Assembly (NCBI GenBank): GCA_016711285.1
Contig: JADJTG010000014.1
Coordinates: forward strand, 311,333 to 375,332
Reading direction: 5' to 3'
DNA from: Sphingobacteriales bacterium
GTDB lineage: Bacteria; Bacteroidota; Bacteroidia; Chitinophagales; UBA2359
DNA length: 64,000 bases
Under the pieces are notes generated by a model. It was given only the letters and a program-made list of their open reading frames with translations. It was not told the origin of the DNA and ran no database searches. A program made the position numbers and the translations under genes. This document shows, in pieces, positions 14,979-59,253 of the stretch; within the stretch, counting starts at the first letter, position 1, and every line of letters begins with the position of its first letter.

Positions 14979-15243
14979 AATATTTTTTATAAAATTAGAT
15001 TTTTAATAATAAATAAGCAGTTTTATTGTCGCTTTAATGCTCATTAAGACAGTTTGCAGCGTGTAAAGTTTAAAATAAGGAATTTGCTGCCGAATATAAG
15101 ATGATAGTCATATAACGTTTTTGATAGGAATAAATTTTACTGCTGACAGTTTTATTTTGCAGCAAAAATAGCAAAAGATATAGCAATGTTTAAGGCTTCG
15201 GTGTAAATTTATGCCATAAATAGCAAAATAACAATTATAAGAT

Positions 15244-31509: not shown

Positions 31510-34277
31510 ATGCTATGGGGTATGAAAAGCAAATATTATTGCATCGTTTTACTGCTTTGTTTTACAAGCACGTTGGCTCAGGATTATACGTCTTATCCTT
31601 ATCCGTTCTCAAAAGACAGTAGTATATTAGGTGATTGTTTTGTTAATGTGCAATTAAATAGTATCTCTACTACTCAGTTGTATTCGGCATTTAGTAATAA
31701 AAACATAACCTCCTTTACAATTGGTGATAAAAATATCTTAGCCTCTCAATTAATTCCTGTCTCTATTGTCAGTCCGCAAGCGACTGTTCGCATTAAAACA
31801 AATACGGGAATTATTGAAGATTTGCCATCACAACAAGTTCACCATTATAGAAGTAATAGCAGCGACAAATTGCGCTTTAGCATAGGAGAAAATTGGTTAG
31901 TAGCATCTTGGATAGAAAATGGTGATGAATATTATACAGAATCGGCAAAGCGGTTTGATGACAAATTAGCAGACAATGTATATATTACATATCGCAAACA
32001 AGACGTAATTAAAAATTATACGATCAGTTGTTTATCTCAAGAAACAGAAAAAGCACAGAAAGAAGTTATTGAGCAATTAGCTGCTAATGAAAAAGCCATA
32101 TTGGGTTGTAAAGTAGCAGAAGTGGCTATTGCCTGCGATTCCTTGTACTATCATTATCATAAAGGAGTTCCGGCTTCTACTGCTAATGTTCAAGATTGGG
32201 TGGCTTCTATATATAATCTTGTTGCCAGCGATTTTGACGACGTTTTTAATTATGCCATAGAGTGGCAATTGATAGAGTTTTTTATTGAAACCACCACTGC
32301 CTCTGTATGGTCAAGTACAACAGATATTTCAGGACTACTGACAGGTGGTGCATTTCCATTTGCTGCCAATAGTTTTGCGGGGTGGGCCTCACAAGGGGGT
32401 TTTACGCAGACACATGATATTGGGCAACTTTTGACAGGGCGAAACTTGACCTATAATGGCAACTCCAGTTATACGGGTTTGGCAATTACCAACCCGGGTA
32501 TTTGTAGTACATCGGGCAAATATAATTTGACAGAAGATATTGCGAGTACACTCGGAGCCACCCTGCAAGCAGTGCGCCATAATACCTCTCACGAAAATGG
32601 ACATAATTTTACTGTTACTCACGACGGTGCTAACAGTGGCTATATTATGTCGCCGAGTTTTAATTTGGCAAGCCCCTCCATCAACTGGTCTGCCGCTTCA
32701 ATTACAGCAGTAAATAATAAATTGAACCTGACAACCTGCTTAAATGATTGTGTTTCAGATGCTGATAATGATGGTATAACAGACTATTCCGACAACTGCC
32801 CTTTAATTTCAAACCCTTCGCAAGCCGATAATGATGGCGATGGCATAGGCAATGTGTGCGACAACTGCCCCAACACCGCCAACAACGACCAAGCCAATGC
32901 TGACGGCGACAACCTCGGAAATGTATGCGACAACTGCCCCAATACCGCCAACAACGACCAAGCCAATGCTGACGGTGACAACCTCGGAAATATATGTGAC
33001 AACTGCCCCAACACCGCCAACAACGACCAAGCCAATACTGACGGCGACAACCTCGGAAATGTGTGCGACAACTGCCCCAACATCGCCAACAACGACCAAG
33101 CCAATACTGACGGCGACAACCTCGGAAATATATGTGACAACTGCCCCAACACCGCCAACAACGACCAAGCCAATACTGACGGTGATAACCTCGGAAATGT
33201 ATGCGACAATTGCCCCAACACCGCCAACAACGACCAAGCCAATACTGACGGTGATAACCTCGGAAATGTATGCGACAATTGCCCCAACACCGCCAACAAT
33301 GACCAAGCCAATACTGACGGCGATAACTCGGAAATGTGTGCGACAACTGCCCCAACATCGCCAACAACGACCAAGCAGACTCAGATGGTGACGGCATAGG
33401 CGATGCGTGTGACAACTGCCCCAACACCGCCAACAATGACCAAGCAGACTCAGATGGTGACGGCATAGGCGATGCATGCAGCTCTCAACCGAACAATACT
33501 TACCATGTCAGTATTAGTCCAAAAGTAATTTTGCAAGGAGCTTATGTTGTATCTACCGGACTTATGCGCGATAATATTCGCACCTTAGAATTACTACCAC
33601 TACAACAACCTTATAATATAACTCCGTTCAACTATAATGCCAATCAGATTATTGAAGACACCAGCATTTTAAATATAACAGGCAGCGATGCCATAGTGGA
33701 TTGGATATTAGTAGAATTACGCGATAAAAACACCCCTTCTGTTATTATTGACAAAAAAGCAGTGCTCTTGCAGCGCGATGGTGATATAGTAGAAACTGAT
33801 GGAAATACGCCGATAATATTTAGTGTAATATCTGATGATTATTATGTTGCGGTGAGGCATCGGAATCATTTAGGAGTTATGACAGCTACCGCCATTTCTC
33901 TCAGTAATATTACACAAAATATTGATTTTACCGACCCTGAGACTCTCACCTACGGGCAAGGAGCACAACGACTTTTGTCTAACAATAAAACTGCATTAAG
34001 GGCGGGCAATACCAACGGCGACAAAAAACTTGTACTGGCAGGCAGTAACACCGATGTAAATCCGATTTCTACAAAAGTATTGATTGCCCCCGGCAACACC
34101 TTTTTTTCCAAAACTTATACCGTTACGGGGTATACCAGAGAAGATGTTGATTTAAACGGAAAGGTCGTTTTGGCAGGCTCACAAACGGAAGTAAACCTCA
34201 TCAGTAATAATATCTTAATGAACCCTCTAAATCCCTCATATAGCCCTACCTCTATTATTCAAGAGCAACTTCCATAA
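31510..34277 (+). CDS. Secreted reprolysin-like metalloprotease with 10 TSP3 repeats; frame broken by a 1-nt deletion near 33327
   Basis: Paralog of 28962..31220: signal peptide, [13 protein letters not shown], then [13 protein letters not shown](A/T)DGDNLGN(V/I)C repeats. Repeat 8 reads GATAACTCGGAAAT where the others read GATAACCTCGGAAAT. Track ORF 33336..34277 continues the same protein (2 more repeats plus a ~265-aa C-terminal domain). The start could also be ATG 31522. Confidence 0.8.
32791..33479. repeat. 10 tandem copies of a 69-bp unit (coding TSP3 repeats), one copy 68 bp
   Basis: Copies start at 32791, 32860, 32929, 32998, 33067, 33136, 33205, 33274, 33342 and 33411. The antisense and out-of-frame ORFs reported here are repeat artefacts. 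Confidence 0.95.
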
Positions 34278-42753: not shown

Positions 42754-43658
42754 ATGAGTATTGAAAAAATACAGCAATCGGATTTTATTGCTGAAATTAA
42801 GCAAAAAGTAAGACAGGCTCAATACGAAGCCCTGAAAGCAGTGAATGTGCTGCTTATCAACTTATACTGGGAAATTGGTAAATCCATAGCCGAAAAACAG
42901 GCTGAAAGCTGGGGCAAAGCCATTGTTCCTGCTTTATCCAAAGAATTGCAACAGGAATTTCCGGGTGTGGGCGGATTCTCTACCACCAACTTATGGCTTA
43001 TGGCACAGTTTTATACTGAATATCATTCAGATATAAATCTCCAACCATTGGTTGGAGAAATTAGTTGGAGCAAACAGATTGTCATTCTGAATAAATGCAA
43101 TGATTCTCTTGAGCGCAAATTCTATATTTTGGCAACTAAAAAATTCGGTTGGACGAAGAATGTGCTTCATATTTTTGATTTTTGGAATTATCGGAGCAAC
43201 ACTCTGAACGGGAACTAGAAAATGCACTCATTCAAAATATAAGAAATTTTTTGCTCGAAATGGGACATCAATTCACGTTTATGGGCAATCAGTTTCGCTT
43301 AGAAGTAGATGAAAAAGAGTATTTTATAGACCTTTTGTTGTATCATCGTCAGTTGCGGTGTCTTGTAGCCATTGAACTCAAAGTAGGCGAATTTTTGCCG
43401 GAGTACAAAGGAAAAATGGAATTCTATCTTTCTGTTTTGAATGATAAAATCAAATTGCCAAATGAAAACGACAGCATTGGCATCATCATCTGCAAAGAAA
43501 AAAATAGAACCATTGTGGAGTATTCGCTAAAAACATCACAACTGCCTATTGGTGTTGCCACTTATACGCTCACCGATAAACTGCCCAAACCGTATCAAAA
43601 CCTGCTGCCGAGCAGCCAAGAGATTACTGATAAAATCAACAAATATTTTAGCAACTAA
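42754..43658 (+). pseudogene. YhcG/DUF1016-family PD-(D/E)xK nuclease, frameshifted and apparently internally deleted
   Basis: N-part AQYEALKAVNVLLINLYWEIGKSI...GFSTTNLWLMAQFY...GWTKNVL and C-part FLELSEQHSERELENALIQNIRNFLLEMGHQFTFMGNQFRLEVDEKEYFIDLLLYHRQLRCLVAIELKVG are in different frames (T-run near 43170-43185). The linker normally present between them appears ~45 aa too short. Confidence 0.65.
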
Positions 43659-43660
43659 TA

Positions 43661-43838
43661 ATAGCCAACCATTAGCTGGCGAGGCTTTTGCGCTGTGTTT
43701 TTTTTGTTGTATTGATAATTTTGCATAAAAATCGCACTTTGCGACTTTGCAGGTGCGTTAGTTTGCGCTCAAAAGGTGTGGCGGTGAGAAAAGTGTTTTT
43801 TTTGTTTGGGGAAATATGTGGATATTTGCGGAAACGGA
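43661..43838. repeat. Intergenic direct repeat, copy 2 (composite: left half = copy 1, right half = copy 3)
   Basis: 43661-43750 matches 42631-42720. 43735-43838 (GCGACTTTGCAGGTGCGTTAGTTTGCGCTCAAAAGGTGTGG...TTTGCGGAAACGGA) matches 61046-61153. Confidence 0.85.
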
Positions 43839-43886
43839 AAATGTAAGAAAATTGAATGAATTAAAAAACTAAAACCTTTGCTATCA

Positions 43887-46138
43887 ATGAAAGATATAAC
43901 AATAACAAAAGAGAAATTATTCGGAAAATTAGATTTTAAAAAAATTGCTGATGACCCTGATTTTAAAGAAGATAGTGTCAGGGAGGTGATAATCCTGCCA
44001 ATAATAAGAGAACTTGGCTACACACAAGAAAATATAGTCAGGAGCAAAACACTCCAACACCCTTTTTTGAAAATTGGCAGTAAAAAAAGACCAGTAAACC
44101 TCGTGCCTGATTATGCCCTGAAAGTTGAAAATAATTTTGCTTGGGTTTTAGATGCAAAAGCACCCAACCAAAAAATAATTAATAACGACAATGTTGAACA
44201 AGTTTACAGCTATGCTACACACCCCGAAATAAGAAGCAATTATTTTACGCTTTGCAATGGTGTAGAATTTTCTGTTTTCAGAACAGCCGACACCGATAAA
44301 CCTGTTCTGTTTTTTGAATTAGAAAACATTGAAAATCATTGGAAAAATTTAGAATTACTGCTTGCACCAACGAGTTTTCAGGTTGGAAAAAACTTTGTCT
44401 ATGAACCTCAAACTGCTTATAAAACAGGATTTGATTACAACAATAGACCACTACTTGAAGAAATTCCAGTAAGAAAACAACAAGCCAAAAGACATTTTGG
44501 TGTGCACGGTTATTTTACCAAACAAACTTGGAATGTAGTTGCCGAATACATCAAGAATTTTAGTAAGTCCGAGATTTAGTGCTTGACCCCTTTGGAGGTA
44601 GTGGTATTACTGCAATTGAAGCATTAATGAACAGCCGAAGTGCAATTAACATTGACCTAAATCCAATGGCTGTTTTTTTGGTTCAGTCTCTTATTGCACC
44701 AGTAAAGCAAGCTGACCTAACTCAAGCATTTAATGAAGTAAAAGAAGAATATTTAAAGAAGGAACCCAAAACAGATGACGAAATAAAGAAAGCCCTAAAG
44801 AAATATGAAGGACCCAAACCAATTCCTTTGCCAAAAGGCTCTGATGTGTCAACAGTTGACCAATTATTCAGTGACAAACAAACAGCACAATTGGGACTTC
44901 TTAAATCAATTATTCTCAAACAGTCCAACGAAAATATTAGGAATACTTTGTTATTAATGTTCTCTGGTTTAGTTACAAAAGCCAACTTAACTTATCATTC
45001 TTCTTCAACTCGTGGTGACGGTGGTGGTGATGCGGCTGCTTTTAGATATTACAGATATAGGATAGCACCAATACCAGTTAATTTAGATATTATGCAATTT
45101 TTTAAATTGAGATATAAAAAAGTTAGAGAAGCAAAAAAAGAAATGGAATATTTTATTAACAATAAAACTATTTCAAATGCACAAATTGTAAAAGGCACAG
45201 CAACCAATCTAAAGTTTATTCCAAAAGAAACAGTTGACTATATCTATACTGACCCACCTTATGGAAAGAAAATTCCTTATTTGGATTTATCTGCAATGTG
45301 GAACGCTTGGCTTGACTTGGAAGTTACCGAGCAAGATTTTAAAGACGAGGCAATAGAAGGTGGAGCGCACGATAAAAGCAAACATGAATACAACCAACTA
45401 ATGGCACAAAGCATTAAAGAAATGTATCGTGTTCTAAAATATGACCGTTGGCTTTCATTTGTTTTTGCTCATAAAGACCCAGAGTTTTGGCACTTAATAA
45501 TTGACACCGCAGAAAGTTGTGGTTTTGAATATGCGGGTGCTGTTGCACAAAAAAACGGGCAGACAAGTTTCAAGAAAAGACAAAACCCTTTTACAGTTCT
45601 ATCAGGACAATTAATAATTAATTTCCGTAAGGTTCGCAATCCAAAAGCAATAATGAAAGCCAACTTAGGGTTAGACATTGCAGAAATTGTAATGCAAACC
45701 ATTGAAGGAATCATTGCAAAATATAACGGTGCGACTTTAGAGCAAATCAATGACGAGCTTATCATTAAAGGCTTAGAACTTGGCTTCTTAGACTTACTGA
45801 AAAAAGAATATACCGACTTGACACCTATTCTACTTGACAAGTTTGATTATGATGAAAAAACAGAAAAATTTACCATCAAGAAAAATACAAAATTTGCAAC
45901 TCATATAGATGTAAGGCTTCGGATAAAATATTATTTAATCAGCTATTTGAGACGAATGGAAAGAGAAAACAAAAGTCCACATTTTGATGAAATTGTTTTA
46001 GCAATTTTACCACTTCTCAAAAACGGAACGACACCAGAAAGTCAGACTATTTTAAGTGTATTAGAGAATATTGCAGAACGTGTTGGACAAGATAGTTGGC
46101 GACTTAAAAAAGAGGGGCAAGCAGTATTATTTAACTGA
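43887..46138 (+). CDS. Fused HsdR_N-type PD-(D/E)xK nuclease-like domain and N6A/N4C DNA methyltransferase (Type IIG-like or solitary), one frameshift at ~44568
   Basis: N-part: VREVIILPIIRELGY...VPDYAL...WVLDAKAP...EQVYSY (restriction-endonuclease-like). C-part: VLDPFGGSGIT (motif I) and IYTDPPYG (motif IV). Inserting one G at TCCGAGATTTAG gives KSGDLVLDPFGGSG, the usual context of motif I, and joins ORFs 43878..44579 and 44579..46138. Confidence 0.7.
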
Positions 46139-46416
46139 TAAAGAAGATAACAGCATATTATCTTTATTTAGAGCATTGTTTTTTACAAAAAAATCACACC
46201 TACGGCGTTTAAGAGCTACTTTTTTATTTGGCACTAAAAAACCACATAAAACCGGATATTTTTTGAACAAAAGCACTTTGAGTGCCTGTTGGAGTGTAAA
46301 AACCCCTTATTTATAAGGCAAATATTAATAACTCATCTATGTATAAATGTTGTTGGAGGGGGTAGCTGAGGGGGGAGTTACCTAGGTACCCCCCCCACCT
46401 ATATAAGTACCCCCCT

Positions 46417-49400
46417 ACCTCTGAACTCGGTTAACTCTCCTCTGAACTCGACTAACTCACTTCTGAACTCCGCTAACTTACTTCTGAACTCCGCTAACTT
46501 ACTTCTGAACTCCGCTAACTTACCTCTGAACTCCGCTAACTTACCTCTGAACTCCGCTAACTTACCTCTGAACTCCGCTAACTTACCTCTGAACTCCGCT
46601 AACTTACCTCTGAACTCCGCTAACTTACCTCTGAACTCCGCTAACTTACTTCCAAACTCCGCTAACTTACCTCTGAACTCCGCTAACTTACCTCTGAACT
46701 CCGCTAACTTACCTCTGAACTCCGCTAACTTACCTCTGAACTCCGCTAACTTACCTCTGAACTCCGCTAACTTACCTCTGAACTCCGCTAACTTACCTCT
46801 GAACTCCGCTAACTTACCTCTGAACTCCGCTAACTTACCTCTGAACTCCGCTAACTTACTTCCAAACTCCGCTAACTCACTTCTGAACTCGACTAACTCA
46901 CTTCTGAACTCGACTAACTCACTTCTGAACTCGACTAACTCACTTCTGAACTCGACTAACTCACTTCTGAACTCGACTAACTCACTTCTGAACTCGACTA
47001 ACTCACTTCTGAACTCGACTAACTCACTTCTGAACTCGACTAACTCACTTCTGAACTCCGCTAACTCACCTCTGAACTCCGCTAACTCACCTCTGAACTC
47101 CGCTAACTCACCTCTGAACTCCGCTAACTCACCTCTGAACTCCGCTAACTTACCTCTGAACTCCGCTAACTCACCTCTGAACTCCGCTAACTCACCTCTG
47201 AACTCCGCTAACTTACCTCTGAACTCCGCTAACTGACTTCTGAACTCCGCTAACTGACTTCTGAACTCCGCTAACTTACCTCTGAACTCCGCTAACTTAC
47301 CTCTGAACTCCGCTAACACCTCTGAACTCCCCTAACTCACCTCTGAACTCCGCTAACTTACCTCTGAACTCCGCTAACTTACCTCTGAACTCCGCTAACT
47401 TACCTCTGAACTCCGCTAACTTACCTCTGAACTCCGCTAACTTACCTCTGAACTCCGCTAACTTACCTCTGAACTCCGCTAACTTACCTCTGAACTCCGC
47501 TAACTTACCTCTGAACTCCGCTAACTTACCTCTGAACTCCGCTAACTTACCTCTGAACTCCGCTAACTTACCTCTGAACTCCGCTAACTTACCTCTGAAC
47601 TCCGCTAACTTACCTCTGAACTCCGCTAACTTACCTCTGAACTCCGCTAACTTACCTCTGAACTCCGCTAACTTACCTCTGAACTCCGCTAACTTACCTC
47701 TGAACTCCGCTAACTTACCTCTGAACTCCGCTAACTTACCTCTGAACTCCGCTAACTTACCTCTGAACTCCGCTAACTTACCTCTGAACTCCGCTAACTT
47801 ACCTCTGAACGCCGCTAACTTACCTCGGAACTCCGCTAACTTACCTCTGAACTCCGCTAACTTACCTCTGAACTCCGCTAACTTACCTCTGAACTCCGCT
47901 AACTTACCTCTGAACTCCGCTAACTTACCTCTGAACTCCGCTAACTTACCTCTGAACTCCGCTAACTTACCTCTGAACTCCGCTAACTTACCTCTGAACT
48001 CCGCTAACTTACCTCTGAACTCCGCTAACTTACCTCTGAACTCCGCTAACTTACCTCTGAACTCCGCTAACTTACCTCTGAACTCCGCTAACTTACCTCT
48101 GAACTCCGCTAACTTACCTCTGAACTCCGCTAACTTACCTCTGAACTCCGCTAACTTACCTCTGAACTCCGCTAACTTACCTCTGAACTCCGCTAACTTA
48201 CCTCTGAACTCCGCTAACTTACCTCTGAACTCCGCTAACTTACCTCTGAACTCCGCTAACTTACCTCTGAACTCCGCTAACTTACCTCTGAACTCCGCTA
48301 ACTTACTTCTGAACTCCGCTAACTTACTTCTGAACTCCGCTAACTTACTTCTGAACTCCGCTAACTTACTTCTGAACTCCGCTAACTTACTTCTGAACTC
48401 CGCTAACTTACTTCTGAACTCCGCTAACTTACTTCTGAACTCCGCTAACTTACTTCTGAACTCCGCTAACTTACTTCTGAACTCCGCTAACTTACTTCTG
48501 AACTCCGCTAACTTACTTCTGAACTCCGCTAACTTACTTCTGAACTCCGCTAACTTACTTCTGAACTCCGCTAACTTACTTCTGAACTCCGCTAACTTAC
48601 TTCTGAACTCCGCTAACTTACTTCTGAACTCCGCTAACTTACTTCTGAACTCCGCTAACTTACTTCTGAACTCCGCTAACTTACTTCTGAACTCCGCTAA
48701 CTTACTTCTGAACTCCGCTAACTTACTTCTGAACTCCGCTAACTTACTTCTGAACTCCGCTAAACTTACTGAACTCCGCTAACTTACTTCTGAACTCCGC
48801 TAACTTACTTCTGAACTCCGCTAACTTACTTCTGAACTCCGCTAACTTACTTCTGAACTCCGCTAACTTACTTCTGAACTCCGCTAACTTACTTCTGAAC
48901 TCCGCTAACTTACTTCTGAACTCCGCTAACTTACTTCTGAACTCCGCTAACTTACTTCTGAACTCCGCTAACTTACTTCTGAACTCCGCTAACTTACTTC
49001 TGAACTCCGCTAACTTACTTCTGAACTCCGCTAACTTACTTCTGAACTCCGCTAACTTACTTCTGAACTCCGCTAACTTACTTCTGAACTCCGCTAACTT
49101 ACTTCTGAACTCCGCTAACTTACTTCTGAACTCCGCTAACTTACTTCTGAACTCCGCTAACTTACTTCTGAACTCCGCTAACTTACTTCTGAACTCCGCT
49201 AACTTACTCTGAACTCCGCTAACTTACTTCTGAACTCCGCTAACTTACTTCTGAACTCCGCTAACTTACTTCTGAACTCCGCTAACTTACTGAACTCCGC
49301 TAACTTACTTCTGAACTCCGCTAACTTACTTCTGAACTCCGCTAACTTACTTCTGAACTCCGCTAACTTACTTCTGAACTCCGCTAACTTACTTCTGAAC

Positions 49401-49793
49401 TCCGCTAACTTACTTCTGAACTCCGCTAACTTACTTCTGAACTCCGCTAACTTACTTCTGAACTCCGCTAACTTACTTCTGAACTCCGCTAACTTACTTC
49501 TGAACTCCGCTAACTTACTTCTGAACTCCGCTAACTTACTTCTGAACTCCGCTAACTTACTTCTGAACTCCGCTAACTTACTTCTGAACTCCGCTAACTT
49601 ACTTCTGAACTCCGCTAACTTACTTCTGAACTCCGCTAACTTACTTCTGAACTCCGCTAACTTACTTCTGAACTCCGCTAACTTACTTCTGAACTCCGCT
49701 AACTTACTTCTGAACTCCGCTAACTTACTTGAACTCCGCTAACTTACTTCTGAACTCCGCTAACTTACTTCTGAACTCCGCTAACTTACCTCT
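46417..49793. repeat. ~160-copy tandem array of a 21-bp unit (CTGAACTCCGCTAACTTACCT and variants), ~3.4 kb
   Basis: Direct reading shows head-to-tail copies without spacers. Variant blocks are ...CGACTAACTCACTT (46870-47045), ...TCACCT/...TGACTT (47046-47340), ~46 x ...TTACCT (47341-48300) and ~70 x ...TTACTT (48301-49780). Sporadic indels occur near 47316, 48765, 49207, 49290 and 49730. Confidence 0.97.
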
Positions 49794-49799
49794 TTTTAA

Positions 49800-49828
49800 C
49801 TTTGACAAATTTTTGAACTTTGTCAAAG
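49800..49828. other. Perfect 10-bp stem hairpin at the distal edge of the 21-bp array
   Basis: CTTTGACAAA-TTTTTGAAC-TTTGTCAAAG. Confidence 0.7.
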
Positions 49829-49845
49829 TGGTGGGCAACAAAAAA

Positions 49846-50040
49846 ATCCTGCCTATCCCTTAATCCCAAAAATCAAGGTTCTGACAAAATAGAAGTTGTG
49901 AAAAAAACAAAATAAAAATCCTGTCTATCCCCTAATCCTAAAAATCAAGGTTCAGACAAAATAGAAGTTGTAAAAAAACAAAATAAAATCCGTTCTATCC
50001 CCTAATCCCAAAAATCAAGGTTCAGACAAAATAGAAGTTG
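49846..50040. repeat. Three tandem ~70-bp repeats (72, 70 and a truncated 53 bp) abutting the stop codon of the S8 protease gene
   Basis: Unit ATCCTG(C/T)CTATCCC(C/T)TAATCC(C/T)AAAAATCAAGGTTC(T/A)GACAAAATAGAAGTTGT(G/A)AAAAAAACAAAATAAAA. Copies start at 49846, 49918 and 49988. Confidence 0.9.
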
Positions 50041-50042
50041 CA

Positions 50043-53000
50043 TCAACGCACCAAAGTCACGTTTCCTTTGAAATCAATGCGCTCGCCGTTGATGAGCTCT
50101 ACGGTACCAAAATAAACATATACGCCCACCTCCGCTTCTTTGCCTTCAAAAGTTCCGTTCCACAGGGGCGCAGCACTTTTTTCGCCAAATACGCGGTTGC
50201 CCCAACGGTTATATACATATAGCTCTACGGTGCTGATGCGGGCTGCATCTACAAATACACGAAAATTATCGTTCATTTGGTCGTTGTTGGGCGAAAAGGC
50301 GGTGGGGATATAAAAAGGTGCTTCTATTTTTACGTTCAGCGTAAAATCTGCCGTATCGCTGCACCCAAATTCATTGGATACCATCACCTGATAAGTGCCC
50401 GCCTGCGAAACCTCCAAAGTGGGATTGGCAGAGCCATCATTCCACAAATATTGTGCATAGGTGCTGTTGGTGCTCAAAGTAGTGCTTTCGCCCAAATTAA
50501 TTTCCGCTGTTCCGTTGATACTCACCTCCGGCGAAGGATAAAGCGTCACTGCTGCCACTGCTGTATCGGCGCAGTTGTTTTCGTCATACACGGTGAGTAT
50601 GTAAGTGCCGATGTCGTCAATGGTGATGCTTTGGGTGGTGTCGCCCGTGCTCCACACATAGCGTGCAAAGCCGTTTTCGCCGCTTAATACTAAGCTGCTG
50701 CCCGCACAAAAAGCAGTATCCGGCAAAGCGGTTTCCACGTCCACACTGCTGGCGTTCAGGTTGACGGTGATGGTGGTATCGCAGCCCGCCGCATTGGTGA
50801 CGGTGAGCGTGTAGGTGCGCGAAGCATCTAAGGTGACGGTGGGATTCGGGATAGTGGCATCATCTAAGCCGGTGGCAGGACTCCACTGATAAGTATAACC
50901 CCATACCGGCGACAAAGCACTGATTTGGTATTCAATGGCTTCGCCGGAGCAGATGGTGGTGTCGGTAACAATGGCGGGCAAAGCAGGCGGCGGTACTACA
51001 AATACCGTCATGTTATCTTCAGCCATACAGCCGTGTTCATCAACCGATTGTACGCCGAAGGTGGTAGTAACCGCAGGTGTGGCAACGGGATTATGAATAG
51101 TAGAATCGTTGAGGTATGGTGTATTTGACCAAATATAGCTGATGTTGTCGGCAGGTGTGGCATTGAGTTGTATGCTCTCGCCTTGGCAAATTTCTACATC
51201 TTCACCCGCATTTACCAGCACATTATCAATGATGAGCAAAATAACCGACACCGGAAAATTAGAGCAAGTACACTGAATATCATCAATATTTAATATAATT
51301 TCTTCAATGCCTTCGGTTTCGGTGTCTTGCAGGGCGTGTATTTCCAAAACAGCCGTAGCTTCGCCCGCCGGAATGACGATAGTTCCCGACAGAGGTTCGT
51401 AGTCCACACCGTTTTCGGCTAATCCTTCGAGGCTGTAATGAATTTCCATCGGCTCGGCATCATCTTCCAAATCGGGGCGCGAAAACTCAAAAAAAGCAGA
51501 TTCGCAGCCTTCATAGGTAGAGAATAAACCAGTGCCTTGGTCAAAAAAACCATTGGCTACCACATTGGGCGCATTGCCTTCGTCTGTAAAACTTTTCGCT
51601 TCCAAAAATACTCCCGAATCCAAAATTTCATCGCTCACATCGGCTACCGCTATTTTGATATGATACACCTGACAAGGCGTAAGCCCCAAAATACGCGCCG
51701 TGAGCGGAACGGTGAAACCATCAAATTCGCTTTGCGGGTCGCCTGTATTCAGTTGTACATGCAAATCGTCATAAGTATCTATACAATTGCCCGCAGGAGG
51801 TGTGCCATTGACGCTTGCCCAGGAATTTACATTATTGATAGTAACCGGCAAATTGGTGCCGGGAATGAGCGCGATATTAACGGCATTGTCGGTATAAGGA
51901 CCGCTGATGCCCGGACCACTGATAAAAAATCCGAATACATCATTAAAAGAACTGCACACATATTCAGGATACTCTTCGGAGGCAAATACATAGTTGAATT
52001 TGATATTGGGCGTGGAAGGAATAAAATCAAATTCCAAAACGGCGGCATCGTTGGTACATAAACCCGCACCCACCGACAAGTTCAAATCCAAATCACCGTC
52101 AGCACCCGCATTCCCCGGCGAGCAGGAGTTGTTGCCCGTCGGCGGCACGTTGAACGAAGTGCCGCCACTTTGGTTCGGTCCTTCCAACAACTCATTGGCA
52201 TTTCCTGTCACCAAATAAATTCCTTTATCAAAGCCTATATCCAAATTGCCGCTTTTTTCAAAACGCCCTATGCCCTGCGAAGAACCTTTGTAAGTGACAT
52301 TAAAAGCACTCACACAACCGCCGCCCAAAAAAGTATTTTGCACATAATCGTAAGGGCAATCCACACAAGCGTCTATATCCAAAACGGTAACAGTAGCCGT
52401 GCCGCTTATATTCATATCGCAATAGGCATCGGAAGCACTGACAAGCGTATATTGATATACCTGCGACTCTTCATCGGCGGCGGTGATGGTGGGATTAAGC
52501 GGCAGAAAAAAGGGATTTTCGGTAATATCGTTGATGGTGATATTGGAAGTTCCGTTGTTGTAGGTGAGTGAATAAGGCGGTGTGCCGTCAAAAGTAAACT
52601 GCAACTCCGTTCCCATTCCGTTGATGATGATGGTATCGCCGCTCAACACCGCACTCGGTTGCGCCACATGTACGGTGAGCGTTTGGCTGTCGCTGCCATA
52701 AGGATTGCTCACGGTGAGCGTAACGTTATAATCTCCGGCAGTATTGAAAGTAACAGTTGGGTTAGGAATATTGGAAACGGCAGGCTGCCCGCCCGCAAAA
52801 GTCCAGTTCCACGAATTAATATCAGGTCCATAAGAAGTATCCTGAAAAGTGATGCTCGCTCCCGGACAAATGGTGATGTTTTCTACCGTCAGGCTATCTG
52901 CCATAAAAAAAGCAAAGGGCGGGATATTTAAACATTTCAGTGCTTCTTCTGCATTGATACGTCCGGGGAGTATATAAGTGCTGTTCATTTCGTCGAGTGT

Positions 53001-54326
53001 TTCCGTGATGCACTTTCTGATTCTTTTGGGCGTTAAGTTGGGGTCGTGCGAGCGCATTAGTGCCGCCAGTGCCGATACCATCGCAGTTGCCGGCGAAGTG
53101 CCGCTATATGCGGTATAAGCATTATCGGAAGTAGCCGAACAACTGTATATATTTTCACCCGGCGCGAAGGCTTTTACGACGGGACCATAATTGGACGAGG
53201 CTTCTCGGGCATTATATTTATCCGAAGCACCAACGCCTAATACGGTGGGGTACGCACTCGGATAGGTAACGGCAATAGTGCCATCGTTACCCGAAGCACC
53301 TACCAACACAATGCCCGCATTTTCCGCTTCCTGACACAAAAACTGCAAAGTGAGCGAAAAAGGATAAAACGACCACGACATATTGATAACATCGGCACCG
53401 TTGGCAATTGCATATTCCATACCCTCGGCAACATTGGGTAAATTGTTGGGAGTGGCGGAGGCATCGGGGCTGCATTTAATGGGCATTAGCCGTACATTAA
53501 AACCCAAGGCTGCAATACCGGAGCCGTTATCCGTGCGTGCCGACACTACGCCGGCGCAGTGTGTGCCGTGCGAAAAATTGTTGTTGCTCGCCGAAGCGGG
53601 CGGATTGGGGTTGCCGTCATTATCGGCAGCATCCCAGCCGCTTTTGTCGTCTATATAGCCGTTGCCGTCATCATCTGCGCCGTTGCCCGCTATTTCGGCG
53701 GTATTTTGCCACAAATTGGGGGCGAGTTCTTGGTGGGTGGTGCGCACGGCATCATCAACAATGGCTACTGTAATGGCAGCACTCCCCTGCGAAATATCCC
53801 AAGCAGCAGGAGCAGAAATCATATTAAAATACCATTGTTGTTGTGTGGCAATATCGTTGGGCGTATAATTGGTGTGCGCCATCGGTACACGCTCTACATA
53901 TTCAAAGTAGCCGCTTGCCTCCAAAGCGCGGATAAAATCAGCCATATGCTGAGTAGATGCGGAAAACTGTATTTTATAAACAGACGACAAATTGCGGAGG
54001 CGCGGAAAAGCCTGACGACAGCTTTGTACTTCGTAGCGGTCGAAAATGGCGAGCAAAGGCTCTGCTCTTTCGTTGGTTTGGCGCAAAGGAAACTCAAAAG
54101 GAGCAATTCCCTGATTTTTCCACTGCACAAATAATTGCCCTGCTACATATTCATCTTCATCGGCTACCGCTACATTGCTCACGGTTTGAAAATATAAATA
54201 TTCCCCGTTTTTACATATCTCATAACCATATTGTTTATTACCGCCCCACAACCAAACAGGTATTGCTGATGCCACCAACAGCCCCAAGAGGCTAACAAAG
54301 ATGTGGCGATGTTTTGAAAACTTCAT
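50043..54326 (-). CDS. Giant secreted subtilisin-like (S8) serine protease with PKD and choice-of-anchor-L-like domains, Ig-like repeats and a T9SS type B (gliding-motility CHU_C) C-terminal domain
   Basis: Signal peptide; catalytic blocks AIVDDAV (Asp), HGTHCAGVVSA (His), SGTSPATAMVSALAAL (Ser). PKD-like TFQDTSYGPDINSWNWTFAGG...YNVTLTVSN. FNYVFASEEYPEYVCSSFNDVFGFFISGPG block. C-terminus PTAFSPNNDQMNDNFRVF...WNGTFEGKEAEVGVYVYF. Confidence 0.88.
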   Translation of the reverse strand: MKFSKHRHIFVSLLGLLVASAIPVWLWGGNKQYGYEICKNGEYLYFQTVSNVAVADEDEYVAGQLFVQWKNQGIAPFEFPLRQTNERAEPLLAIFDRYEVQSCRQAFPRLRNLSSVYKIQFSASTQHMADFIRALEASGYFEYVERVPMAHTNYTPNDIATQQQWYFNMISAPAAWDISQGSAAITVAIVDDAVRTTHQELAPNLWQNTAEIAGNGADDDGNGYIDDKSGWDAADNDGNPNPPASASNNNFSHGTHCAGVVSARTDNGSGIAALGFNVRLMPIKCSPDASATPNNLPNVAEGMEYAIANGADVINMSWSFYPFSLTLQFLCQEAENAGIVLVGASGNDGTIAVTYPSAYPTVLGVGASDKYNAREASSNYGPVVKAFAPGENIYSCSATSDNAYTAYSGTSPATAMVSALAALMRSHDPNLTPKRIRKCITETLDEMNSTYILPGRINAEEALKCLNIPPFAFFMADSLTVENITICPGASITFQDTSYGPDINSWNWTFAGGQPAVSNIPNPTVTFNTAGDYNVTLTVSNPYGSDSQTLTVHVAQPSAVLSGDTIIINGMGTELQFTFDGTPPYSLTYNNGTSNITINDITENPFFLPLNPTITAADEESQVYQYTLVSASDAYCDMNISGTATVTVLDIDACVDCPYDYVQNTFLGGGCVSAFNVTYKGSSQGIGRFEKSGNLDIGFDKGIYLVTGNANELLEGPNQSGGTSFNVPPTGNNSCSPGNAGADGDLDLNLSVGAGLCTNDAAVLEFDFIPSTPNIKFNYVFASEEYPEYVCSSFNDVFGFFISGPGISGPYTDNAVNIALIPGTNLPVTINNVNSWASVNGTPPAGNCIDTYDDLHVQLNTGDPQSEFDGFTVPLTARILGLTPCQVYHIKIAVADVSDEILDSGVFLEAKSFTDEGNAPNVVANGFFDQGTGLFSTYEGCESAFFEFSRPDLEDDAEPMEIHYSLEGLAENGVDYEPLSGTIVIPAGEATAVLEIHALQDTETEGIEEIILNIDDIQCTCSNFPVSVILLIIDNVLVNAGEDVEICQGESIQLNATPADNISYIWSNTPYLNDSTIHNPVATPAVTTTFGVQSVDEHGCMAEDNMTVFVVPPPALPAIVTDTTICSGEAIEYQISALSPVWGYTYQWSPATGLDDATIPNPTVTLDASRTYTLTVTNAAGCDTTITVNLNASSVDVETALPDTAFCAGSSLVLSGENGFARYVWSTGDTTQSITIDDIGTYILTVYDENNCADTAVAAVTLYPSPEVSINGTAEINLGESTTLSTNSTYAQYLWNDGSANPTLEVSQAGTYQVMVSNEFGCSDTADFTLNVKIEAPFYIPTAFSPNNDQMNDNFRVFVDAARISTVELYVYNRWGNRVFGEKSAAPLWNGTFEGKEAEVGVYVYFGTVELINGERIDFKGNVTLVR

Positions 54327-54710
54327 GTGTGTAAATGCTTATTTTTTGGTATCAAAAATAAAGATAGGGCAAATACTTTGAAAGTTGCCTGTATTACTGT
54401 TACAAAACCAAGAATTGTTTATAAAGTGACATTTTTTCACAAAACATAATATTTACGCAATTTTACTTTTTTTATAACATTCACAGATCTATATCAATTA
54501 TAAAGATATATGGCAACTATAAATAAAGTACTGACACATAAAATCACTTGTAATTAGTGATGAGTATTTTAGTTGCAAGATAGTGTGATACATAAACCTT
54601 TTCAAATCAAGTTTTGTGATAAAATCATCACCTTTGAAATCAAAAATCAAAAAAACTTCAGTTTATTAATACTCAACAAAATAAAATTTACAATTCTGCG
54701 TTGCAAAAAT

Positions 54711-55133
54711 GTGAGAAGATTCTATTATTATATAGTCATTTTTACGCTAATGGGTTTCTTTTTGATACCTGTCCAAAAAACCTATGCTTGTGGTACGAAA
54801 TCTGAAAACATTAAAACTTTATGCCACAAACAACCGGATTCCGAAGTGGAGAAAAGAGACTGCTGTAATAAAGAAAAAAGGCAATGTGATAAATGCACAA
54901 AAGACTGTAATGGTAAAGGTGGAAATCCAAATTGTCATTGCTCAACGAATTTCTCTAACTTTATAATTCCTCTTATTACTCAACTTTTACAAGCAAAAAT
55001 AATACGAGGTAAATTAAATTTTTTCTATCCAGAAACCCTTCATTCATCGGGTTTTACCTTTATTTGGTTACCGCCCAAAATAGGCCGATTTTTTTCCTTG
55101 ACAGCCGTAAATCTGTCAAATCGAGAGCATTGA
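54711..55133 (+). CDS. Small Cys/His-rich membrane-anchored protein, putative metal-binding partner of the copper cluster
   Basis: GTG start gives VRRFYYYIVIFTLMGFFLIPV (TM helix), then ACGTKS...RDCCNKEKRQCDKCTKDCNGKGGNPNCHCS...IWLPPK. I recall a Bacteroidota family near metal-resistance genes with Cys-His, CC and PP motifs, but cannot verify membership. Confidence 0.45.
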   Translation: MRRFYYYIVIFTLMGFFLIPVQKTYACGTKSENIKTLCHKQPDSEVEKRDCCNKEKRQCDKCTKDCNGKGGNPNCHCSTNFSNFIIPLITQLLQAKIIRGKLNFFYPETLHSSGFTFIWLPPKIGRFFSLTAVNLSNREH

Positions 55134-55177
55134 CTTACCTTTGAAATCAATTATTTTAATAACTCAAATATAATAAA

Positions 55178-56044
55178 ATGAAATCAACAAATATATTGAT
55201 AGTAATTGCCTTGTTACTATCCCTCACAGCGTGCAATGCACAAATCAAAAACCCTATTACCGAAAATGTAAAAATATATGGTAACTGTGGAATGTGCGAA
55301 AGAACCATTGAAAAAGCAGGAAATATTAAGAAAATAGCAAAAGTAGATTGGAATAAAGATACCAAAATAGCTACACTTACCTATGATACAAGTAAAATTA
55401 ATCAAGATGAAATATTGAAACGCATTGCATTGGTAGGTTACGACAGCGAAAAATTTCTTGCACCTGATGATGTGTATGCCAACCTTCCAGAATGTTGCCA
55501 ATACGACCGTGAGAAAAAAACAAAAACGATGAAAGCAGAAAATACCGTGGAAGGGTATTCTATACACAATCACGATGAAATACTAAATAAGCCGACAGAA
55601 ACAACACAAGATGTCAACGAATTAAAACCGGTTTTTGACAACTATTTTGCACTAAAAGATGCGCTGGTAAAAACAGATAAAAGTGAAGCTTCATTGAAAG
55701 CGAAAGATCTGCTAAAAGCAGTCAATACAGTAAAAATGGAGAAACTTTCAGTAGATGAACATGGGGTTTTTATGAAAGTATTAGATAATCTAAAGTCAAA
55801 TATCGAAAAAATTTCAACTACTGCCAATATAGAAGATCAACGTAAATTTTTTATGAATTTATCGGTGTCTTTTTATGATTTGGTCAAGGTTAGCCATCTA
55901 GAAAATCCCGTTTATTATCAACACTGTCCAATGGCTAATGATGGTAAAGGGGCAAACTGGTTGAGCAAGGAAAATAATATTAGAAACCCATACTTTGGTT
56001 CGCAGATGCTTACCTGTGGCAAAACAATAGAAACCATTAAGTAA
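55178..56044 (+). CDS. Lipoprotein with HMA-like metal-binding domain (CGMC) and DUF3347-like C-terminal domain
   Basis: Lipobox LSLTAC; KIYGNCGMCERTIEKAG...ATLTYD (ferredoxin-like HMA fold with a CxxC variant). The C-terminal HCPMANDGKGANWLS...NPYFGSQMLTCG is typical of DUF3347. Confidence 0.7.
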   Translation: MKSTNILIVIALLLSLTACNAQIKNPITENVKIYGNCGMCERTIEKAGNIKKIAKVDWNKDTKIATLTYDTSKINQDEILKRIALVGYDSEKFLAPDDVYANLPECCQYDREKKTKTMKAENTVEGYSIHNHDEILNKPTETTQDVNELKPVFDNYFALKDALVKTDKSEASLKAKDLLKAVNTVKMEKLSVDEHGVFMKVLDNLKSNIEKISTTANIEDQRKFFMNLSVSFYDLVKVSHLENPVYYQHCPMANDGKGANWLSKENNIRNPYFGSQMLTCGKTIETIK

Positions 56045-56117
56045 CCTCACATTATACCAGTATAATCTTACGGATTATACTGGTATTTTAGATATTGAAG
56101 AAAATGAAATTAATAAA

Positions 56118-58343
56118 ATGGATAATCAAAAAACTATTGGTAAAAAAGTGTTGCCGATAATCGTTTTACTGCTATTGGCATCGAATGTATATGCCCAAAA
56201 GGTAGTACGATATGATCTATATGTAAGAGACTCCCTCGTCAATTTTAGCGGAAAGGCAAAAAAAGCCATTGCAGTAAATGGTCAAATACCAATGCCTACA
56301 CTTACCTTTACAGAAGGTGACACAGCAGAAATTCATGTATATAATCAGCTCAAAGAAAGCACCTCCTTACATTGGCATGGGCTGTTTGTGCCCAACCAAG
56401 AAGATGGGGTTCCTTATTTAACACAAATGCCTATTGCGCCAAATACAGCCTATGTTTATCGGTTTCCTATTAAACAAAACGGAACTCATTGGTATCATAG
56501 TCATAGCGGATTGCAAGAACAAATAGGCATGTATGGATCTTTAATTTTAAAAAAGAGAATAAACGATCCTTATCTTAGAGAAGGTATTGACGATTTGCCT
56601 ACAATCCCCATTATTTTGAGGAATGGACAGACTATAAACCTGAGAAATATACACAGAATGTTGCATAATGCAACAGATTGGTTTGCAATCAAAAAAGGGG
56701 CTACTCAAAGCTATTCAGAAGCCATAAAAGAAGGTTATTTCAAAACCAAACTAACCAACGAGTGGAAACGCCTGTTGGCAATGGATGTGAGCGATATTTA
56801 TTATGATAAAATCCTAATAAACGGTAAAAATGAAAGCCAGATGTCGCAATTTCAAGCTGGAGACAGCGTGCGGTTGCGTGTCTCTAATGGAGGAGCTTCT
56901 ACCTATTTTTGGCTCACTTATGCCGGGGGCAAAATTACAGTAGTTGCAAATGATGGAAACGACGTACTTCCTGTGCAAGTAGATAGGTTGATAATAGGTG
57001 TTTCAGAAACCTACGATATTATCCTCACAATCCCGACAGAAAATACGTCCTTTGAATTGTTAGCCACCACAGAAGATCGCACCAAATCGGCTTCTATTTA
57101 TTTAGGTTCTGGTATCAAACAGTTGGCAAACCCGCTACCTCGATTACACTATTTTGAGGGAATGAAAATGATGAACAATATGATGAAAATGAATGGAAAA
57201 ATGAATGACATGGGTATGAATATGAGTCTGCAGAAAATGGATATGAATACAGTCATGTACCCTGAAATATCAGGTCATAGAAAGGCAATAAAAAGTACTT
57301 CTTCAAACCATTTCACAAGTAATGCAGATATAGTAACACTCAATTATTCTATGCTGAAATCACCTTTAAAAACCTCACTTTCTACAGATGCACCGTTGAG
57401 AGAATTTAAATTTGAATTAACCGGAAATATGAATCGTTATGTATGGAGCTTGAACAACAAAGTACTTTACGAATCCGATAAAATTCTAATTAAAAAAGGA
57501 GAAATAGTAAGAATTATACTTTACAACAATTCAATGATGCGTCATCCAATGCACTTACATGGGCATGACTTTAGAATTTTAAATGGAAAGGGGGAATATG
57601 CGCCACTAAAAAATGTTTTGGATATTATGCCAATGGAATCTGATACCATTGAGTTTGAAGCCAATCTTGATGGCGATTGGTTCTTTCATTGTCATATTCT
57701 ATATCACATGATGGCAGGTATGAATCGTGTATTTAGTTATGAAAATCAACCAATAAACACGTTATTACCCGACAAAACGTGGGCTTATAAGCAATTACAA
57801 AGAGAAAGTAATCGACTGCATTTTATGGCTCAAAATGATTTTGCCTCTAATGGAAATGATGGTATGGAAATGATCCAAAACACACGTTGGAGTTTTGGTA
57901 CAGAATGGCGTTTGGGGTACAACAGAATGCACGGTTATGAAAGTGAAACTCATATTGGCAGATATATCGGAAAAATGCAATGGTTAATGCCTTTTGTTGG
58001 GTTTGATTGGCGTTATCGTCAAATTACACAAAACGAATTTGAAGAAAACCTCTTTGGGCAAAAAAATACCAAAGACAATAGAACTCAATTTAGCATAGGA
58101 ATTGCCTACACTTTACCAATGCTTGTTATTCTACAAACAGAATTATACCATGATGGTAATTTAAGAATACAATTAAAACGGGAAGATATTCCTGTTTCGG
58201 AAAGATTGAGAGCTGCATTTATGGTAAATTCAGATCAGGAATACATGGTAGGTCTCAGCTATATTTTAACTAAAAATTCAGGTTTTAGGGCTCATTTTGA
58301 TAGTGATATGGGCTTTGGGCTTGGTTTGGTCTTGAATTATTAA
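56118..58343 (+). CDS. Multicopper oxidase (CopA/PcoA-like) with ~200-aa C-terminal extension
   Basis: Copper-ligand motifs LHWHGLF, HWYHSHSG, HPMHLHGHDF, FHCHILYHMMAGM; Met-rich segment MKMMNNMMKMNGKMNDMGMNMSLQKMDMN. The extension ends ...GFGLGLVLNY. Confidence 0.85.
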   Translation: MDNQKTIGKKVLPIIVLLLLASNVYAQKVVRYDLYVRDSLVNFSGKAKKAIAVNGQIPMPTLTFTEGDTAEIHVYNQLKESTSLHWHGLFVPNQEDGVPYLTQMPIAPNTAYVYRFPIKQNGTHWYHSHSGLQEQIGMYGSLILKKRINDPYLREGIDDLPTIPIILRNGQTINLRNIHRMLHNATDWFAIKKGATQSYSEAIKEGYFKTKLTNEWKRLLAMDVSDIYYDKILINGKNESQMSQFQAGDSVRLRVSNGGASTYFWLTYAGGKITVVANDGNDVLPVQVDRLIIGVSETYDIILTIPTENTSFELLATTEDRTKSASIYLGSGIKQLANPLPRLHYFEGMKMMNNMMKMNGKMNDMGMNMSLQKMDMNTVMYPEISGHRKAIKSTSSNHFTSNADIVTLNYSMLKSPLKTSLSTDAPLREFKFELTGNMNRYVWSLNNKVLYESDKILIKKGEIVRIILYNNSMMRHPMHLHGHDFRILNGKGEYAPLKNVLDIMPMESDTIEFEANLDGDWFFHCHILYHMMAGMNRVFSYENQPINTLLPDKTWAYKQLQRESNRLHFMAQNDFASNGNDGMEMIQNTRWSFGTEWRLGYNRMHGYESETHIGRYIGKMQWLMPFVGFDWRYRQITQNEFEENLFGQKNTKDNRTQFSIGIAYTLPMLVILQTELYHDGNLRIQLKREDIPVSERLRAAFMVNSDQEYMVGLSYILTKNSGFRAHFDSDMGFGLGLVLNY

Positions 58344-58398
58344 AATACAGGTGAATGTAATTTATTTTATTATTAGATTATAAAAAATACAAATATGA

Positions 58399-59000
58399 TT
58401 AATTGGGTGATAAAAAGCCGAATATTTTTCTTGGTCTGTTATTGAATTTGTCTTCTTCATCTTTAATATCATTTTCAGTGATTAGGTTAAAATCGCAATG
58501 TTTAGGAAAATATTGTTTGAGGAGTCTGAGAAAAGGGTTTCCAATCTATTAATATTTTCACTATTTTTCGGTTGGTTTCTTGAGAAAATTTGGTATTTAG
58601 GAGTGCGGTTTCAGCCATTCCTGTTACTCTGTCATTGGCTGTTAGTATGGCGGCTTTCTCATGATTTTTCCCTATCACCAAATCAATTTCTATATCTCCT
58701 ATTCTTATTTTTCATCCACTATTTTCGGGCGGTATTCAATGCTTACTTTATCGTAAACTTATCCTCCTTTATCTTTTGCCGCGCTTCTTTTCCGATAGCG
58801 TATTTGCACATTTCTGCCCGCTAATTCCGCTTTGTTCAAACCGCTCCTTTGGTCGCAGTTGCGCCTAACTCTCCGCTAACAACAGATGCGTGTTTCCCTG
58901 TTTTTTTCTATTGCCTTTTGTAAAAAACTTGCTTCTTTTAATGTTTGTATTTCGTATCTTTGAAAAAATATTTCTCTCTTGTCCATTACTTGAGTTGCAT
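58399..59000 (-). pseudogene. IS30-family transposase remnant (multiple stops, frameshifts and internal deletion)
   Basis: Reverse-strand frames give MDKREIFFQRYEIQTLKEA..., RRNCDQRSGLNKAELAG..., YRPKIVDEKIRIGDIEIDLVIGKNHEKAAILTANDRVTGMAE... and FNNRPRKIFGFLSPN*. These are the ordered IS30 blocks (HTH, RN..., GhWE.D.i.G, N.RPRK.LG..tP). At ~600 bp it is too short for an intact gene. Confidence 0.6.
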
Positions 59001-59253
59001 TTATTTGTTGAATTTAAGTTTAATTTTGACAGCCCTAATAATTTTTTATCAAAAAGTTGCATTTGTGACTTGAAACCTGCTTGTAAAAAAAACAGTTTGG
59101 TAAAAAAAGAGGAGCAGGAAAAAATTCATAATTAAAAATGAATTAAATTTGAAAAATCAGCTCTTTGACGGCGGAAAGGTATTGCTGCTGTTTTGCCGAA
59201 AAAAATATTGTAGCTCCTATTTATCAATGTAAAAACAAACTGTTTATATATAT

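Follow-up and report, generated by a model that had tools for sequence, protein, structure and literature searches.

The question raised by this locus is whether a kilobase-sized tandem array of a 21-bp unit is a giant heptad-repeat gene or a non-coding satellite. The array was found in a 64,000-nt stretch (hereafter, the window) of a Sphingobacteriales bacterium, corresponding to positions 311,333 to 375,332 of contig JADJTG010000014.1 in assembly GCA_016711285.1, and lies there between two convergent genes. An initial annotation of the window, which had been made from the sequence alone, left the choice between coding and satellite undecided. The evidence described here favors the non-coding satellite, and the array is probably the expanded repeat core of a multi-copy intergenic element that consists of a leader, a 21-bp minisatellite and a tail.

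Structure of the 21-bp array

The array extends over 46416-49793 on the minus strand and comprises 161.3 copies with 98% matches and a score of 5809, as examined by Tandem Repeats Finder. Unit-by-unit parsing gave 161 units, which are placed head to tail without spacers, as the initial annotation had claimed for its ~160 copies. The commonest unit was GAACTCCGCTAACTTACTTCT (n = 69), followed by …TTACCTCT (n = 63), GAACTCGACTAACTCACTTCT (n = 9) and …CTCACCTCT (n = 6); beyond these four types, rarer variants and a few singletons were found. On the minus strand, the unit reads AG(A/G)GTAAGTTAGCGGAGTTCAG. Two AACT motifs were invariant in every unit, and no sub-period of 10.5 nt or 7 nt was found within the 21-bp unit (shift-7 autocorrelation of 8/21). 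A 17-mer of the unit gave 158 matches, all inside the array and none elsewhere in the 64-kb window, as compared with 0.14 in shuffled sequences.

The parsing recovered the block structure proposed earlier, namely a mixed part followed by a TTACCT block and a TTACTT block (coordinates of all features are given in Table 1). In the heterogeneous, tail-proximal part, a 10-unit motif is present twice, at 46633 and 46843, and the units at the tail end of the array (…TTAACCGAG…, …GTGAG…) are similar to the unit of a second locus described below. Five units are of aberrant length: those at 47305, 48752 and 49712 have 19 nt, the one at 49191 has 20 nt and the one at 49274 has 18 nt. Together, they amount to four frameshifts and one in-frame deletion. 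Thus, the four length changes not divisible by 3 that had been reported were found again, together with the further in-frame deletion at 49274. The array contains no ATG, GTG or TTG codon at any position, in agreement with the earlier description of the unit, and the open reading frame (ORF) at 46399..47319 is indeed the longest intact piece, with 306 aa.

The array is preceded by a leader, which occurs once in the window. The leader starts on the T-tract of a preceding terminator-like hairpin and holds a perfect palindrome of 11-14 bp at 49799-49829, of the TTTGACAAA-N9-TTTGTCAAA type, as well as an 18-bp near-duplication. An in-frame TTG TTG at 49841-49836 adjoins the palindrome and corresponds to the TTG that had been pointed out near 49850 beside a hairpin. 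In addition, the leader carries a relaxed Bacteroidetes-type -7 box, AAAATTTG, at 49813-49806, and this box and the palindrome would leave room for transcription into the array. Scans for sigma-70 promoters and for terminators scored no better than on shuffled sequence.

On the opposite side, the array passes into a tail, whose boundary at 46307 was placed by comparison with an empty site in related strains and should be taken as approximate to that extent. The degenerate units of the tail carry G6, C8 and C6 runs and a G/C hairpin at 46371-46396, and the minus-strand frame reaches its stop codon within the tail, at 46399-46401. Note that three of the six G/C runs of at least 6 nt in the window fall in this tail (46370-46415); such tracts are typical of phase variation and slippage, and also of long-read error.

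The leader recurs at a second locus

A leader search of metagenomes found a contig, L069 (CXWK01009918.1), in which all 57 nt of the leader were present with 100% identity at 6424-6480. After the leader, a diverged 21-bp array (AAGTGAGCTAACCGAGTTCAG / AAGTAAGTTAGCCGAGTTCAG) runs for 10 units up to the contig end. These units are ~86% identical to those of the window, that is, ~14% different, and beyond leader and array no other similarity between L069 and the window was found. Upstream of the leader, the two loci have unrelated sequences: in L069, an S46 peptidase gene comes first and then a clean intrinsic terminator (CCCTCGTGT…ACACGAGGG followed by T7), on whose T-tract the leader begins, as it does in the window. 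The S46 peptidase, P0124, was found with 100% identity in DRR4384xx, the Logan sample series that also contains P0001, the closest relative of the peptidase next to the window's array. Because P0124 and P0001 share this series, and the next relatives of the two peptidases are only 59% and 57% identical, respectively, we infer that L069 represents another locus of the same species-level population.

Contig ends gave a further indication of leader copy number. L070 and L072 end 30 nt into the leader, L071 is of equal length after the stop codon, and two strain contigs described below, L003 and L005, end exactly 31 nt beyond a single-nucleotide polymorphism (SNP) in the leader. These ends fit the behavior of a k = 31 de Bruijn graph at sequence present in more than one locus, suggesting that the leader is multi-copy, and they would also mark GGATTTTTTTG as the 5′ limit of the repeated element.

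Searches for the unit elsewhere, as proposed in the initial annotation, gave no further locus: exact-match scans for the unit junction returned 0 matches in genome, metagenome and viral collections. The leader likewise had no match in viral contigs, plasmids or phages. A degenerate phased 21-bp pattern was also tried on genomes and matched 59 loci, all of which were unrelated 21-bp repeats.

Filled and empty sites in related strains

We compared the locus with its closest relatives, which were found through the adjoining peptidase. Among the relatives of this protein, P0001 from Logan assemblies was 99% identical, and the next, from a Chitinophagales metagenome-assembled genome (MAG), was 57% identical. 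The contigs carrying P0001 fell into two classes. In L001, L002 and L004 (DRR4384xx), which match the window at ~98% identity across 4.5 kb, one unit of the 72-bp repeat upstream of the leader is followed by GGGATAGGCGGGGTTTTTATTTTG… and then by unrelated genes; leader, array and tail are all absent. In L003 and L005 (SRR355665xx), on the other hand, one 72-bp unit is followed by the window's leader, with 94% identity over 97 nt; the leader has one SNP, and the contigs end 9 nt short of the array.

Both the right flank and the motif AAAGTAGCTCTTAAACGCCGTAGGTGTG of the window have counterparts in the empty-site contig, so that the difference between filled and empty sites covers ~46307-49848, that is, leader, array and tail. 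The element at this site is thus most likely present in some strains and absent from others. Given that the right flank matches GGGGTTTTTA…CACTCC of the empty site, the GG..TTTTT found at both junctions could, together with GGATTTTTTT on the leader side, represent an imperfect target duplication.

The 72-bp repeat itself also differs between strains, with one copy in the related strains and 2.8 in the window. As a separate observation, in the Chitinophagales MAGs with the 57%-identical orthologous gene (L006-L009, ~14420-15030), an unrelated ~100-bp tandem repeat of ~2-6 copies lies downstream of that gene. The 3′ intergenic region of the peptidase gene seems prone to repeats across the lineage.

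Origin of the array and alternative explanations

The explanation that we favor, and consider probable, is that of a three-part intergenic element with a conserved leader of ~57 nt, a non-coding 21-bp minisatellite and a degenerate tail in which G/C runs are frequent. Its copies would lie directly after intrinsic terminators at several chromosomal sites in a Chitinophagales-like species, each copy being present or absent depending on the strain. The leader is 100% conserved between the two loci and the units are ~14% different, indicating that the arrays evolve locus by locus. Each array would do so through replication slippage and unequal recombination, which would homogenize variant blocks and could have inflated the present array to ~161 units. 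The tail-proximal units resemble the L069 unit and the leader-proximal two-thirds consist of two nearly pure blocks, which agrees with the tail-end units being the older ones; the array may thus have grown by slippage or unequal exchange, with recent amplification on the leader-proximal side, although the direction of growth is itself a reconstruction. The element would be mobile or otherwise dispersed, and its array could be selfish or neutral, perhaps transcribed from the weak promoter-like site in the leader.

If this explanation is correct, a poorly sampled Chitinophagales-like lineage carries dispersed minisatellites that adjoin terminators and whose arrays reach kilobase size, ~7 times the largest array described for BrickBuilt, the comparable element of Bacteroidota discussed below. 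Short-read assemblies would miss such elements, as their contigs break off at the leader. Strains would also differ in structure at these elements, and spurious "coiled-coil" ORFs called over them would enter databases. With a known leader sequence and with filled and empty alleles, the element would offer a system for studying how bacterial minisatellites spread, expand and are transcribed.

Several observations weigh against this explanation. The genome-wide copy number of the leader was deduced from contig breaks, two loci having been seen directly, and the tail is known from the window's copy alone, since L069 stops inside its own array. The DNA past the right flank also varies between strains, so a larger replacement is possible. 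By-eye comparison of the outer ends at 49850 and 46307 gave no terminal inverted repeats, repeats having been searched separately in each flank. In addition, some features look like those of a gene: the lengths of the unit (21 nt) and of the leader sub-repeat (18 nt) are both multiples of 3, the RSKLAEF frame is open across the leader and all 10 units of L069, and Leu and Phe are retained, partly through synonymous changes (TTA/CTA, TTC/TTT).

These last features would be accounted for by a giant, size-variable gene for a heptad-repeat coiled coil, M-LPTTLTKFKNLSKLKR-(GKLAEFR)n-GRGVLI, in which the leader encodes the N-terminus and the four frameshifts are consensus errors in a hard-to-polish repeat. 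The minus-strand consensus unit reads R(S/G)KLAEF, and in the window this frame is open from the TTG at 49841, across the leader and as far as the third unit, after which it is broken. The initial annotation had described one stop-free frame on each strand, which holds for the consensus unit, but the plus-strand frame gains a TGA in two TGACTT units. Leu at position a and Phe at position d are found in every full-length unit, with charged residues at e and g, and the 306-aa piece gives scores with many Pfam families of coiled coils. The anomalies that recur every 480-520 bp, described below, look like a processing artefact, and absence from databases is weak evidence against such genes because short reads cannot assemble them. 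However, the array as assembled contains four frameshifts, and its flanks are accurate, with 1 gap in 4.5 kb as compared with short-read (Logan) contigs and with the 1427-aa ORF of the neighboring peptidase kept intact in the same assembly. The array offers no start codon, and the TTG TTG of the leader lies on the T-tract of the upstream terminator at both loci, which leaves no room for a promoter of its own; as the sequence upstream is unrelated between the loci, no conserved promoter precedes this start. Neither a signal peptide nor a non-repeat domain was found. The earlier reading of the retained Leu and Phe as a sign of coiled-coil selection did not hold up, although the retention itself did: some unit differences are synonymous (TTA/CTA, GCG/GCC, TTC/TTT, AGA/CGA and GGT/GGA), which would speak for coding, but 4-5 of the 13 distinct substitutions in the window and L069 are synonymous in the RSKLAEF frame, as compared with 6 of 13 in two stop-containing frames, with few events in all. 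The substitution pattern thus does not single out the RSKLAEF frame. A search for (LAEFRGK)n proteins, which had been proposed as a check, found no relatives: the 306-aa ORF, (LAEFRSK)n, had no true homologue among 5.8 billion clustered proteins, with 3 weak coiled-coil matches, and the leader peptide, run exhaustively with phmmer against 1.84 billion representatives, gave nothing below 1e-10 and six weak matches. Three of these six were checked and proved to be ORFs called over other intergenic 21-bp arrays (L073, L074 and L075). Furthermore, the element is dispensable in strains whose flanks are ~98% identical. Taken together, we regard a giant gene as quite unlikely. A broader version of it, in which the leader-array loci form a hidden family of expressed, copy-number-variable (LAEFRxK)n coiled-coil rods that start at TTG on read-through transcripts, are missed by databases since short reads cannot assemble them, and owe their frameshifts to polishing errors, is in our judgment very unlikely.

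The assembled form of the array calls for caution of another kind. Anomalies are located at 46843, 47305-24, 47807, 48290 (where TTACCT gives way to TTACTT), 48752-71, 49274-92 and, at the end of the array, 49793, with spacings of 481, 483, 483, 481, 521 and 501 bp, and the runs of perfect units include three of exactly 22 and two of exactly 20. The marks vary from block to block, unlike those of true higher-order repeats. Some polishers work in windows of ~500 bp, a size similar to this spacing. The regularity could reflect window-wise consensus polishing or an unusual mode of expansion. Because the anomalies recur every ~480-520 bp, copy number, block purity and indels of the array are provisional and need a check at read level. 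It is conceivable that the array is real but that its length, its two homogeneous blocks and its indels are largely products of assembly and polishing, the true array being shorter or longer with its variants interspersed, as they are in the L069 array, which has no long pure blocks. On the other hand, an identical compound variant (TTCC|AAAC) returns 10 units on, which looks biological, the sequence around the array is accurate, and the existence of a leader with a 21-bp array is independently supported by L069, L003 and L005. We therefore consider it unlikely that the architecture is largely artefactual. The array might instead be functional, either as ~160 in-phase binding sites, 21 bp being two helical turns, or as a repeat RNA by which an RNA-binding factor is titrated; the leader palindrome would then act as operator or promoter. 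The 21-bp period, the two invariant AACT motifs of each unit, the perfect palindrome with the relaxed -7 box and the full conservation of the leader between arrays that differ by ~14% would fit such a role, as would the promoter activity of BrickBuilt segments (PMC4596501). However, no rep, par or regulator gene adjoins the array, the element is missing from near-identical strains, and the units differ by ~14% between loci. The unit has no 10.5-nt sub-period, the promoter scan equaled that of shuffled sequence, and no Rfam match was obtained. As for RNA structure, the minus-strand array RNA had a high folding z-score, which came from weak G-U-rich pairing between units only, and the plus strand was unstructured. 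A binding-site or RNA function is thus highly improbable, and the three-part non-coding element is retained as the preferred explanation in the comparisons that follow.

Comparison with known repeat systems

The closest described analogue of the element appears to be BrickBuilt, a minisatellite-bearing miniature inverted-repeat transposable element of Porphyromonas gingivalis, which has 23-nt spacer-less repeats in 1-22.8 copies between a leader and a tail (PMC4596501). BrickBuilt occupies 19 intergenic loci, varies between strains, and contains segments that may have promoter activity (PMC4596501). Both elements belong to Bacteroidota, are strictly intergenic, and combine spacer-less tandem repeats of ~20-23 nt with a conserved leader and with a tail. 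Like BrickBuilt, the present element would occur at several loci per genome and vary between strains, and both have spurious ORFs called over them by annotation pipelines. They differ in unit length (23 nt in BrickBuilt and 21 nt here), in maximum copy number (22.8 versus ~161, or ~7-fold) and in the IS5-like 12-nt terminal inverted repeats of BrickBuilt, none of which were found here. Furthermore, the present element adjoins intrinsic terminators and was seen directly at two loci. We liken the two by architecture and do not claim that the present element is a member of the BrickBuilt family. The initial annotation knew of no array of this size and purity in Bacteroidota chromosomes; an analogue has in fact been described there, but with at most 22.8 copies.

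Direct repeats of the heptamer TAACTGA have been reported in Beggiatoaceae, Cyanobacteria and a few Bacteroidetes, with up to 43 copies in some Bacteroidetes (PMC4679880). They share with the present array short intergenic direct repeats at many loci, a patchy phylogeny and one strand translatable as a repeat peptide. However, their unit is 7 nt long, and most sets lie just upstream of start codons, whereas the present element follows terminators. A TAACTGA/STRR-type heptamer repeat was rejected as an identity for the array, as the unit lacks a 7-nt period (8/21 at shift 7). A CRISPR array was rejected since the units run head to tail without spacers. An iteron or centromere-like array of the sopC/parC type was also rejected, the neighbors being an S8 peptidase and a methylase and the plasmid and phage collections having given no match.

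Other intergenic 21-bp arrays are likewise called as heptad ORFs, namely RLAEFRE x7 in L073, SKLTEPR x11 in L074 and KLGNFRP x14 in L075. A further case is a Eubacteriales MAG (L010-L068, CAVGDP0100…), in which a 21-bp array of AATAACTTCAATAACTATTNN is located at the ends of ~40 contigs; its presence at so many contig ends indicates a dispersed, unrelated 21-bp family that breaks short-read assemblies. The arrays of L073-L075 and CAVGDP01 share with the present one the 21-bp period, the intergenic location and the pseudo-heptad translation, but their units are unrelated or marginally similar, they have 7-14 assembled copies, and they have no common leader. In L075, a Bacteroidota-like contig, the 14-unit array of AAGTTAGGTAACTTTCGYCCA at 2650-3150 is called as a 207-aa ORF and is bordered on both sides by ~70-nt direct repeats (…CAGAAGGAGGCAGTGAAGAGCGGACATTGCC…ATATAGAAATTTTACA…).

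Among repeat-containing genes, those of the Vlp/Vsa families of Mycoplasma encode repeat proteins of variable size and are conserved at their 5′ end. They resemble the present element in that a 5′ segment conserved across loci precedes tandem repeats that are specific to each locus, come in multiples of 3 nt and vary in copy number. However, the Mycoplasma genes have promoters, begin with ATG, encode lipoprotein signal peptides and form intact ORFs, and none of these features is seen here.

Neighboring genes and other features of the window

The coordinates of the element, its parts and its neighbors are collected in Table 1.

Table 1. Positions in the window of the element, its flanking sequences and the adjoining genes.
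Feature	Position	Strand	Description
N6/N4 DNA methylase-like ORF	44579-46138	+	convergent neighbor, in strain-specific island 42754-46138
Terminator-like motif	46195-46222	-	AAAGTAGCTCTTAAACGCCGTAGGTGTG, then T-run; common to the empty-site strain, anchors right-flank homology
Right flank	46290-46306	-	GGGGTTTTTACACTCCA (as GGGGTTTTTACACTCC at 46306-46290); matches empty-site GGGGTTTTTA…CACTCC
Tail	46307-46415	-	2-3 degenerate 21-bp units, then AT-rich, ending in small hairpin CCTTATAAATAAGG
Heterogeneous tail-proximal part of array	46416-47344	-	~44 units, at least 10 variant types
TTACCT block, homogeneous	47345-48289	-	45 units: 22, 1 double-substituted, 22
TTACTT block, homogeneous	48290-49793	-	~72 units, four short (19, 20, 18, 19 nt); final unit TTACCT
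Leader	49794-49850	-	57 nt; GGATTTTTTTGTTGCCCACCACTTTGACAAAGTTCAAAAATTTGTCAAAGTTAAAAAGA; 100% identical to L069 6424-6480
72-bp tandem repeat, x2.8	49842-50040	-	between peptidase stop codon and leader; each unit hairpin + U-tract, terminator-like
S8 peptidase	50043-54326	-	1427 aa, PKD + CHU_C (type IX secretion system, T9SS) domains; upstream neighbor, same orientation as leader and array

The strain-specific island that contains the methylase-like ORF also holds a split YhcG/DUF1016 nuclease gene. Specifically, the YhcG/DUF1016 gene (42754-43658) forms two overlapping ORFs, with two T5 runs close to the split at 43170-43190, and the methylase-like gene (43878-46138) is split at 44564-44581, directly before a DPFGGSG motif. 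The split genes are either pseudogenes of a decaying restriction-modification-like island or the result of indel errors.

The window otherwise consists of ordinary chromosomal sequence, which includes pdxJ and genes for an ABC permease and T9SS cargo proteins. No tRNAs were found in it, and Rfam gave nothing at gathering scores and chance-level matches only at E < 1. On the far side of the peptidase gene, a 4.6-kb segment (54473-59079) holds a 186-aa ORF, a DUF3347 protein and a multicopper oxidase; in its place, the 98%-identical Logan contigs carry a 1.8-kb segment with a PQQ_2/Por_Secre_tail gene. The 4.6-kb segment looks like a strain-specific, copper-related islet. Two further tandem arrays with a 69-bp unit lie inside large ORFs, at 30239-30724 and 32851-33445, with 7 and 8.6 copies, respectively. 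From reading of the consensus units, they appear to encode thrombospondin type 3-like Asp-rich repeats and, in contrast to the 21-bp array, look like ordinary coding repeats.

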